DNA of 64,000 nt, from contig OX597821.1 in NCBI GenBank assembly GCA_951406725.2, positions 92,628,001-92,692,000 of the forward strand, written 5' to 3'. Shown here piece by piece: positions 1,190 to 52,679 of the stretch. The position numbers and the translations under genes are program-made. Within the stretch, counting starts at the first letter, position 1. The number at the start of each line of letters is the position of its first letter. The notes beneath the pieces are model-generated. The model did no database searches. It was not told the DNA's origin and saw only the letters and a list, made by a program, of their open reading frames with translations. Source of the stretch: Octopus vulgaris (taxonomy: Eukaryota).

Positions 1190-1646
1190 ACCCTTAGGGA
1201 TTAACCATACTTAGGGGTTAGCCATACTTAAATGGCAAATATACGTCATGATGTGTTGTAGCTACTGTTTATAACTCGCTCTGAGATTTATTATTGCTTA
1301 TTTACACTTTTTCGATATCAGTATCTATCGATACTGGAAAAAAGTATAAGTAATTGTGAAGGGAACTTACTTCTCATTGAAAACTGTGATTGTCACATGC
1401 CAATGACGGGTCAATACCCAGAAACTCGAGTCCGTGTGTATCATAAGTTGAAGACAGGAAGAATAGCTTCCCTTTGCAAATACTGATAGGACACAGAAAG
1501 TGTGTCTATAGCCAGCTGGAGGAGGTGTCCTCCTGGGGCTACAAACTACAGTAGCATCCACCCTTAGGGGTTAGCCATACTTAAATGGCAAATATACTCC
1601 ACGATGTGTTGTAGCTACTGTTTATAACTCGCTCTGAGATTTATTA
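1190..1646 (+). mobile_element. Non-autonomous hammerhead-bearing retroelement (Penelope-like pseudo-LTR / retrozyme type), direct-repeat form
   Basis: 10-bp TSD TATCAATTTA at 1180-1189 and 1647-1656; ~84-bp direct repeat (1210-1293 vs 1563-1646, period 353); no credible coding frame; HHR motif inside; homologous to 51947-52342. Confidence 0.8.
1394..1438 (+). ncRNA. Type I minimal hammerhead ribozyme with degenerate core
   Basis: cacatg-CCAATGA (for CUGAUGA)-c gggt caat accc a-GAAA-c TCGA g-TC-cgtgtg; stems I and II pair; palindromic loop III. Confidence 0.7.
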
Positions 1647-2319
1647 TATCAATTTATAGTTATTCACAAACTATATTTCAGAAGACGATGTTCCTACCTG
1701 TGTTTAATTTAACATCATTTTTGATCGATTGAAATTTGTGGAGTTCTTCTCTTTGCCTCTTGTGAGATTAATATTTCCTTAACGTTAGTGAATGTTCTTG
1801 TCATTACAGCTACAATTTCATATGATTGTAAATTATTTTCAGCTCACACCATATGGTAGGTTATACTTGACTACATGTTCTTCATGCTTGAGACACATGT
1901 GGGATATTTTCCAATGACGTTTTTAATAAGATATTGTTATATTCTTTCATCAACACAGAGGTAATTTTTTACTCTTGTCTCTTTATATACTCACTCTTGA
2001 ACCACTACAGTGGAAACAAGAGATGTTGAGGGGCATCCAGCACAAACTAGGATGTGGAAGGACTATGTTGGAATATGCAATGACTTCTCTATCGTTATGT
2101 AACACATCAGGCACATCAAGAGGTTCAGCACCACTCAAAGGAATCACAAAGTGGTGATAGGAGCAAAAACAACCAAGAAAAGTCAATGGCTTTGCAGAAT
2201 GGCACATAGAGAGACTGGCCTTCTACGAATTTCATTTTAATAGGTAACGATGCAGTACAAGGTCAATGCTAATCAAAATGAACAGGGGATATGACTAAAA
2301 ATTTTTTGATTAATTACAA

Positions 2320-5910: not shown

Positions 5911-7509
5911 TACAACAACATCTCTTCCTCGCAATTCTCTGTGACAATCTGGATATTTCAATGTATTTATTTCCTCAGTTTTTCTCTCGTCCCCGCCTCC
6001 TTTTTAAACAACAATTCATGTCATGTGCGTTAACAATTTTTTGTCAAATGTGTTAACTGTTTCTTATCTCCTCATAATTTTTTTCAAAAAAAATAACACA
6101 CACACACACAAAAAAAAAGAATTATAATTTTTAAAATCATTTCCATAAGATTTTTTCGAAAAATTTTAATTTATTAATTTATATTTTCACTTTTTATAAT
6201 TCACAGCTTTTTTTAAAATTTTGCTTGTAATTTTTATTTTTATGTTATTTTATTTCTCCTGTTTTTCTATATTCTTCTTTTCTAAATGTACAAATGCAGA
6301 GGTATGAGGGTGTGTGTGTGTGCGTGTGTATGTGTGTGTGGTACCATATGAAAATATACACACCATTAATTAGTGGGTAGTTATCCTCCTCCTCCCTCCG
6401 CTTCCTCCTCCTTCTTCAATTCTTTCTTTTTCTCTTCCTCCCTACCTTTCAGGTAACCACATCTCCATCTCTCCTCTCTTTATACTTGCTATTTTTTAAA
6501 ACTTTTTCTCATCCTTTCACTTGTCCCTTGTTAAATCATGACAACCTCAACCCCCCCACCACCACCACCACAGCACCACTATATTACGAACACTGCGCAA
6601 GCCACCGCCACCTTCGCCATCCACATAACCATACATCATTATCATCACCTCCACCAGCACCACCTCAGCTACCTCTGCCAACCGCATAATCACTATTACT
6701 CCTATCTGCACCATACATTTCCTTCAATAACCACAAAACTAATACCAAAAGAACAACACTCCACCGCAGAACCCATCATCAGTACAACAACCACCAACAC
6801 CACCATCACCATAATTACCTCTTTCACTACTATCACCTGCACATCTACTACCAAACACTGCCATAGTCACCATCCTTGTCACCATCACCATAATCATTAT
6901 CCCTTTCAATGTCACCAGTAACACTTACAAACACTGCCATCACCAATACCACCAACACCCCCAGGCCAAAACCAACACCAACACCACCACCACCATCCTT
7001 AGCACCATTGTAAGAAACTGTCATTCTGTCTTTAACACTATATGACTGACAGCACCATTCTAAGAAACCATTATTTTGCCATAAACACTATATGACAAAT
7101 AACTACCAATCCGACCTGTATGGAATAACAAAAAATTCTCCATTGCTATCATGCATGCTCCAGCTCCAATCCACCATGACCATCTCTCCTGTGATCAACC
7201 AACAATTATCGATATAATGCCACCATTTATGGAGGCAAGCTGGCAGAATCATTAGCATGATAGCCAAAAATACTGATTGGCATTTCGTCCATCTTTGTGT
7301 TCTGATTTCAAATACCTTCAAGATTGACTTTGCTTTTCATCTAAAAGTTCTACCACATCATCTCCATCTCCATCGTCTTCATTTCTGCCTTACCATTACC
7401 TCTATATTGACCATATCATCACCCTCATCATCATCACCATTAAATCTTTCATGTTATCATCATCATCATTGTCACACCACCATGCCTTTAACATTACTAT
7501 AACCATCGT

Positions 7510-41404: not shown

Positions 41405-41435
41405 TTTAACGTTTCAAGCAGAACTCTTCGTCAGA
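41405..41435 (-). ncRNA. Minimal hammerhead motif in a small element (~41300-41435) embedded in (TA)n
   Basis: Minus: CTGACGA-a gagt tct gctt-GAAA-CG-TT-aaa; palindromic AACGTT; 5' arm of stem I lost. Confidence 0.55.
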
Positions 41436-50985: not shown

Positions 50986-51946
50986 ATTATTATTATTATC
51001 ATTATTATTATTATTATATGAATGTGGGGAGTTGGCAGAATCATTAGCATGCTCAACAGAATGTTTTGCAGCATTTTTTCTGGCTTTACACTTCAAATAT
51101 CACTGAGGTCGACTTTGCCTTTCATGGGCAATAGAATTGACTTGTGCCCTCCCACAAAATTTGAGACCTTGTGCCTATAAGAGAAAGAACTACTACTACT
51201 ACTACCACCACCACCACCACTACTACTACTACTACTACTGTATTTTATGAAACGTTTTTTACTTTCTCTCTTCGAAACACGATTTTTTTAAGCACTACCA
51301 GATGAAAGCTTCTTTGGAATATTCGATAAAACAGACCCTCGATACCTAGAGACAGACAACAACAAATAAAAAGGTTTGTTTTACAAATTTTAATATAAAT
51401 TTATGAACTATTTTTTTTCACGTACAAATAGTTACCAAACACACACACAGACACATATATAAAATTGTTGGAAAAAACACTAACGGGGATAAAAAGGAAA
51501 AAATATCAAAAGAATAGACAACACAAAATTTTAAAAAAACGTATGATGCGGCACAATTTCTTCAAAATAACAATGATACTACTCTCTCAGAAAAATAACG
51601 AAGACAATGAAGAGGATGAGGAACTCACTGTCCTTCGAAAATCAAAGAATTAATGAACAAAATTATGCCCCTGTGGTACCATTGTTTTTTTAAGAGGTAA
51701 GAATGACACAAAGCACACAGCTTCACAATATAAGCAACTTAATTATTAATAAAATAAAACTAAGAAATCACACCGAACTCATATTTTGAATATCTTGAAA
51801 TTATCATCACCAAATGTCTCAAAACGTGCTTACTAGTGCATTTAGTTGCACTCATATCCAGCCCGGAAAAGGACTAATGGGTAGGATTTTGGTATGCCCA
51901 AACCGAAACTGACCAGTCATCTTTCTGTTATAACTTCTTTTAATTA

Positions 51947-52342
51947 TGTGAGGTATACTAGCCATCTCAATATGGCTAACCACTAAGGGTGGGTGTTACT
52001 GTAGCTTGTAGCCCCAGGAGAACACCGTCTCCAGCTGGCTTTAGGCACACTTTCCGTGCCCTTATGGTATTTAAAACCGGTGATTGTCGTACGCTGAGGA
52101 CAGGTCAATATCTAGAAACTGCAGTCCGTGCGTATCACTTAGGTTGACGAGGGAAGGATGATCTCCCTTTGCAAATACCATAAGCGTACAGAAAGTGTGC
52201 CTAAAGCCAGCTGGAGACGATGTTCTCCTGGGGCTACAAGCTACAGTAACACCCACCCTTAGTGGTTAGCCATATTGAGATGGAAAGTATGCCTCACATT
52301 GTCGTGCAGTTACTGTTTATACCTCGTTCAGAGATTTATTAT
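51947..52342 (+). mobile_element. Hammerhead-bearing retroelement, inverted pseudo-LTR form (same family as 1190-1646)
   Basis: 12-bp TSD TTCTTTTAATTA (51935-51946, 52343-52354); 126-bp inverted arms 51947-52072 / 52173-52298; ~44-nt 3' tail ending GAGATTTATTA as in copy 1. Confidence 0.85.
52088..52132 (+). ncRNA. Type I minimal hammerhead ribozyme with intact core
   Basis: cgtacg-CTGAGGA-c aggt caat atct a-GAAA-c TGCA g-TC-cgtgcg; predicted cleavage after C52126. Confidence 0.85.
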
Positions 52343-52679
52343 TTCTTTTAATTAATTTTTTAAAATATTACTGCTGGTTTTGTCGTAGCTTTCTAGGATT
52401 GAAAAATCAATAAATCATATAGTAGAAAGAATCCAATATTAACTCATTATAGGTCTGGTTACTCATAAATGATATCTATTATTCTTTCCCCTGCTCCGGT
52501 CATTGGACTACGACCATGCAGGAGTTACGCCTTTAAATATTATTGTCAGTTATATTGACCGTAGTACTTTAAATGGTTGCCGATTTTATAAAATGGTTAA
52601 TTTTTCTAAAGTTTCACAGTTTTAGAGAATTCTATATACGAAAAATAAAATATCGTCTTGAACAGAACCCTAAACACAC

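Follow-up and report, generated by a model that had tools for sequence, protein, structure and literature searches.

The 64-kb window analysed here (the whole stretch of DNA, 64,000 nucleotides) comes from an octopus genome of 2.8 Gb that is rich in microsatellites. It carries, at positions 51935-52354, an insertion built around a hammerhead ribozyme motif, together with a sister insertion of the same family. Positions within the repeat are given on a 354-bp monomer. The features are as follows:

51935..51946, plus strand: left target-site duplication (TSD), 12 nt, repeated exactly at 52343-52354
51946..52072, minus strand: inverted, 5'-truncated arm, monomer 173-299, stopping at the family's short 3' end and lacking the hammerhead
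52073..52342, plus strand: main copy, monomer 73-343 of the 354-bp monomer, subfamily A2
52073-52172: loop, 100 nt
52088..52132, plus strand: minimal type I hammerhead motif, with a 6-bp stem I at 52088-93/52127-32
52094-52100, plus strand: CUGANGA box of the hammerhead
52115-52118, plus strand: GAAA box of the hammerhead
52118..52125, plus strand: self-complementary 8-mer standing where stem III would be; pairing between two molecules is predicted at -11.1 kcal/mol
52119-24, plus strand: loop III palindrome of the hammerhead
After C52126, plus strand: predicted hammerhead cut
52173..52299, plus strand: portion of the main copy mirrored by the inverted arm
52300..52342, plus strand: tail of about 44 nt, between the family's short end (~299) and long end (~343)
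52343..52354, plus strand: right TSD, 12 nt
1210..1650, plus strand: sister insertion, subfamily B1, a partial tandem (monomer 257-351, then 1-341) without an inverted arm

Anatomy of the insertion

A preliminary description of this stretch had reported inverted arms, a 100-nt loop, a tail of about 44 nt and an exact 12-bp TSD, and all of these are present: the arms (51946-52072 and 52173-52299) are complementary at 120 of 127 positions, leaving seven unrepaired mismatches. The hammerhead boxes lie where they had been placed, and the stem and loop letters quoted for this copy and for the sister insertion are correct. The hammerhead had also been called intact, which holds for its boxes and is generous for the base of stem II, where the subfamily has a C.A mismatch for G10.1-C11.1 with an A-U pair beside it. 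In the sister insertion the first core box is broken, by U4C (a subfamily trait) and by a private G5A. Two further places in the window, 41412-41434 and 5956-5978 (both on the minus strand), show the spacing of CUGANGA..GAAA and are unrelated to the retrozyme family.

Read across the locus, the insertion consists of monomer 173-299 reversed, followed by monomer 73-343 with six private changes across the 262 positions compared; about 80 nt of the monomer are missing. The hammerhead falls in the loop because the arm is short, and with a single hammerhead and monomer 73-343 only, the copy is unable to form a cis-dimer or to release a monomer. Rfam returned no hammerhead family, either over the whole window at the gathering score or over 51800-52500 with E allowed up to 10. 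Shuffled versions fold as well as the 46-nt motif does by itself (z -0.20), which is expected of a minimal hammerhead that lacks a stable stem III. None of the six window ORFs tested has a Pfam match over the cut-off, and the 64-kb window has no match to three Penelope-like element (PLE) proteins searched against it.

A transcript of either strand is predicted to fold into a hairpin at about -266 kcal/mol, and one might see here a dsRNA or microRNA-like element selected by the host. We consider this extremely improbable, as the arms correspond to what insertion normally yields in a dispersed family, retain their seven mismatches and are highly variable in length between insertions, and as the locus has no Rfam match and no host gene was recognised in the six ORFs. 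The long dsRNA announced in the preliminary description, a predicted fold, is a by-product of insertion geometry. The locus is a real and well-formed copy, but an ordinary one, of an element of known kind.

A dispersed family of 354-bp monomers

The core pattern of the family, defined over 35 places, has 1392 exact matches in the genome, against 0 for the reversed pattern; a first look had given 3267 candidates for the locus copy, of which 40 were scored. The monomers lie head to tail with a period of 353-355 bp, forming arrays of several units, and have a GC content of 0.41-0.43, no ORF and no LTR. Their type I hammerhead core is canonical in subfamily C, which is very young (0.6% from its majority), and variant in subfamilies A, B, D and E. 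The family is an animal non-LTR retrozyme: abundant, dispersed and non-coding.

Fourteen sequencing runs presumed to be RNA contain 0.22-0.36 of the family's words, and contigs from three such runs cover the repeat and not the unique flanks of the locus, a result that shows neither expression nor silence. Runs X16-X19, which are labelled as two other organisms, contain up to 0.56 of these words, so that the family is probably common to related species. A second, unrelated repeat with a period of about 200 bp, both tandem and inverted, was seen alongside at L002:260-710 and also in L003, L007, L008, L017, L021 and L029.

Two fixed ends, one per arm

After 18 overlapping loci of the same places had been dropped, 101 distinct insertions remained, and 70 of them have 3' ends on both sides (47 of 71 among those found with inversion-free queries). 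These ends cluster at two monomer positions about 44 nt apart, a short one at ~299 and a long one at ~343, and their combination is strongly constrained: among the 70 two-armed insertions, 57 pair a short with a long end, none has two long ends, one has two short ends (and lies cut by the edge of the examined locus), and 12 have one end elsewhere. The Penelope hallmark recognised in the preliminary description is upheld by this footprint, which is that of a PLE. The position of the hammerhead in the loop, noted in the same description, is not general in the family, since 24 of 47 two-armed insertions have a hammerhead in both arms.

Outside (TA)n, 17 of 27 insertions are bounded by exact duplications of 10-15 nt, compared with 4 of 702 mismatched flank pairs, and a further 31 insertion sites are (TA)n. 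Insertion into AT-rich DNA by a borrowed Penelope-type protein, with reverse transcriptase (RT) and GIY-YIG domains, is the likely reading. Two pairs of insertions are near-identical, L098/L103 (G000:C1, at ~21.14 and 22.18 Mb) and L141/L142 (C9, 6.3 kb apart); the members of each pair share architecture and variants and are probably segmental duplications or assembly repeats. L142, the near duplicate of L141, was left out of the end-class and array counts and kept in the TSD tally, and L103 was also left out of the haplotype and both-arm hammerhead counts.

Covariation and variation of the hammerhead

Changes that keep hammerhead pairs paired are concentrated between subfamilies: 4 of 9 fixed subfamily differences are compensatory, whereas among private mutations 1 of 43 is (p 0.002). 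One compensatory case is doubtful, as it involves a CpG-decayed majority (group E), and with 3 of 9 the value calculated by hand is p ~0.014; the compensatory change in stem I involves CpG sites on both sides. In loop III, a double transversion exchanges TGCA and TCGA while an 8-bp self-duplex is retained, and this palindrome switch is the strongest indication that dimer pairing is under selection. Covariation of the stems and of loop III is real between subfamilies. The two-copy comparison in the preliminary description had picked up these real subfamily changes mixed with decay that is private to one copy or the other (the T of ATCT, the T of CACATG), one of the two copies being the sister insertion with its broken core. 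Of its suggestion that dimeric self-cleavage is selected, the hammerhead pairing and self-complementary loop III stand at the subfamily level, and the locus copy, with one hammerhead, falls outside it.

Across 21 natural copies the hammerhead structure is 93% paired, compared with 16-54% in slid controls, and the stem III columns are 98.8% paired, with one two-sided change. Cell-level measures on this 21-copy alignment beat shuffles and pair-level measures did not (382/500, 500/500). Covariation called by alifold outside the hammerhead (11/38 vs 3/145) is discounted because the structure was derived from the same majorities.

The core itself varies at specific points. U4C is found in 365 of the 1392 core matches, and G10.1-C11.1 is present in 473 and absent from 919; in the 21 aligned copies, G-C occurs in 3. 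The C.A mismatch that the preliminary description took to be shared is thus not family-wide. With most core matches lacking the canonical 10.1-11.1 pair and 365 bearing U4C, cleavage may be weak. U4C has been reported to lower activity in vitro and yet to support viroid infectivity, and U.U at 10.1-11.1 occurs naturally (PMC3088659). The hammerhead of a coding F2 PLE in the octopus genome is also variant, with U4 and C4 alternating and U.U at the base of stem II, so that weakening of the core seems to be a trait of PLEs in general; dimeric PLE hammerheads were treated by Lunse et al. (cited in PMC6765202), who may already describe such core variants.

A tree built without the hammerhead columns (44 rows, at most 4 per group, midpoint root) nests subfamily C among the B/D groups (100/99) and places two A5 copies among A, and a single clade of G-C carriers is rejected (AU p 8.7e-7). 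The canonical pair therefore appears to occur in two separate lineages, A5 being represented by two copies; with a midpoint root, two gains are not strictly separable from repeated losses.

One rival account bears directly on these variants. The family might be a non-autonomous PLE whose copies are made from uncut linear read-through of tandem arrays, with the hammerhead retained for its structure (bound by a protein, for instance) and circles uninvolved; we hold this to be unlikely. In its favour, subfamilies with U4C and without the 10.1-11.1 pair have reached many copies; hammerhead mutants of an anole PLE were unimpaired for insertion in vitro, which proceeded without need of hammerhead cleavage (PMC11167929); and 8 of 9 Xenopus retrozyme dimers remained uncleaved (bioRxiv 10.64898/2026.07.22.740005). 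Set against it are the swap of the loop III palindrome by double transversion and the invariance of the core, where the 8 subfamily majorities agree at 11 of 12 positions, as against 63 of 212 variable positions elsewhere, a contrast given without a significance value.

A probable common template for both arms

Also at odds with linear read-through, several young arrays carry locus-private variants, absent from other sampled loci, in all units of both arms. At three common variant sites in 30 young insertions, 151 of 153 same-arm comparisons and 108 of 111 opposite-arm comparisons agree, as opposed to 54-64% between insertions. The predicted fold of the compact circle is strong in young C monomers (z -5.7 to -7.6) and is -2.9 and -3.9 in older A monomers. 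Taken together, the agreement of haplotypes between arms, the array-private variants and the circle folds favour a single monomer template, copied again and again from two start sites. The simplest such template would be a circle, although the shared haplotypes also fit linear transcripts of a single source array that is homogeneous, or template jumps made repeatedly. At least two same-strand hammerheads are present in 19 of 30 insertions of subfamily C, compared with 3 of 28 and 0 of 33, a difference confounded by age and query choice.

Penelope-like elements of the octopus genome

The genome carries many RT-GIY-YIG elements with a CX2-5CxxC linker, of Neptune/Nematis type. A coding RT-GIY-YIG PLE at L088:2021-5183 (G000:C14, near 47.99 Mb) has identical inverted arms of 766 bp, one short and the other with a tail of about 29 nt, and nine distinct ends comprise 5 short and 4 tailed ones, so that it follows the two-ended rule seen in the retrozyme family; its hammerhead shows U4 and C4 alternating among the copies of its family and U.U at the base of stem II. 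A young PLE family (L081-L086) has an intact RT-GIY-YIG frame of 781 aa, preceded by an overlapping frame of 330-480 aa without a Pfam match, and is inserted in (TA)n; scans of its terminal repeat gave no hammerhead.

These elements bear on the view, implied in the preliminary description, that the locus is a pseudo-LTR (pLTR) fragment, that is, the 3' stump of an ordinary coding PLE. The arm-and-tail architecture is indeed that of coding PLEs (PMC8557442; L088). However, where copies reach 5' of the hammerhead, an 80-nt linker is followed by the tail of the preceding monomer, with no ORF, and three PLE proteins searched against 91 family loci matched 3 unrelated fragments; where these were examined, the monomer was joined to none of them. 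In 52 GIY-YIG PLE loci searched with the monomer by blastn, nhmmer and tblastn, no coding PLE was found to have a homologous terminal repeat, the hits being separate copies, either neighbouring or nested; this was a partner search that took in just these 52 loci, drawn from 148 listed matches among 6136 candidates, and so leaves this view some room. We rate it as very unlikely, and take the family instead to be a self-contained 354-bp tandem monomer, whose partner PLE is inferred by kind and not named because those 52 loci held no homologous terminal repeat.

Family copies in L088, L079 and L189 were considered as pLTRs and rejected, being separate neighbours or lying in a (TA)n tract beside a PLE. 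At L189:3-370, a young subfamily C copy lies in a (TA)n tract immediately 5' of a truncated F2 PLE; the two are separate insertions into a like target.

A proposed route of insertion

We propose, and think it probable, that at this locus a non-coding hammerhead retrozyme of 354 bp was inserted as a truncated copy with two arms, and that a borrowed Penelope-type RT/GIY-YIG protein likely placed it in AT-rich DNA. Tandem source copies would be transcribed, and two hammerheads would pair through the loop III palindrome to excise a monomer, which would probably be closed as a compact circle. Both DNA strands would then be cut about 12 nt apart by the PLE protein, which would prime cDNA from each 3' end on the same template, at the short internal site on one side and the long site on the other. 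The two cDNAs would end at variable points and be joined head to head, giving arm, loop, arm, tail and TSD. Purified anole PLE protein has been reported to cut and extend both strands, initiating at two internal sites between which the tail lies (PMC11167929). As both cDNAs at this locus would have stopped short of one full turn, the copy is predicted to be a dead end.

Discussion

The octopus family is like the animal non-LTR retrozymes described previously (PMC7229834; bioRxiv 10.64898/2026.07.22.740005) in having non-coding head-to-tail monomers of 150-450 bp with GC below 50%, a type I hammerhead per unit, TSDs longer than 4 bp, a highly self-paired predicted circle, and PLEs in the same genome. 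It differs in its inverted arms and two-ended tail rule, which do not appear in the available text of those accounts. Retrozymes of coral, mussel and axolotl have been demonstrated as circular RNA (Cervera and de la Pena 2020, PMC7229834; Li, Clavereau and Pollet 2026), whereas the octopus family is known here from DNA sequence. The sampling of Li, Clavereau and Pollet 2026 (bioRxiv 10.64898/2026.07.22.740005), as far as the available text gives it, includes no mollusc; in Xenopus, 24 of 57 retrozyme families matched known elements, nearly all PLEs, in contrast to the absence of a homologous PLE terminal repeat from the 52 octopus loci.

Endonuclease-bearing PLEs (PMC8557442, PMC4209133, PMC11167929) share with the octopus family partial tandems, an inverted 5'-truncated copy, a single-ended tail (described as a PLE feature in PMC8557442) and AT-rich or (TA)n targets; PLE minimal hammerheads likewise have a small palindromic stem III predicted to act as a dimer. 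Unlike these PLEs, the octopus monomer has no ORF and its tail is about 44 nt, as against 30-40, and G10.1-C11.1, described as highly conserved in PLE hammerheads, is absent from most octopus subfamilies. The non-autonomous Chlamys PLEs, such as MRC1 (PMC8557442), are similarly non-coding, pLTR-forming and multicopy head to tail, but are described as mostly without hammerheads and as having a 3' end like that of an autonomous partner, whereas no such partner was found in the octopus loci searched.

That retrozymes are non-autonomous PLE sequences has been argued from co-occurrence in vertebrates and pLTR similarity (bioRxiv 10.64898/2026.07.22.740005), so the idea has already been proposed, and each part of the footprint is already known. 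In the literature covered (Penelope hammerheads, cephalopod retrozymes and PLE inverted tails), neither this octopus family nor a PLE footprint on a retrozyme was found. The new details are the single haplotype across both arms of young insertions and the canonical pair in two lineages.

Lineages of the family switch between weakened cores (U4C; C.A, C.U or U.U at 10.1-11.1) and canonical ones, and long arrays are concentrated in the canonical young subfamily. On this basis ribozyme strength could decide between two modes of the PLE enzyme, travel round a circle from two fixed starts or copying of linear RNA, a conjecture that we offer as doubtful; if it were true, the family would be a natural experiment on the purpose of the Penelope hammerhead.

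The importance of the family is modest. Its two fixed ends, one per arm, and the haplotype shared between arms are footprint evidence for the mobilisation of animal retrozymes by PLE enzymes, for which the support given in the published text available consists of co-occurrence and pLTR similarity, and the family supplies matched natural hammerhead variants with which to probe the role of cleavage in PLE-type transposition.
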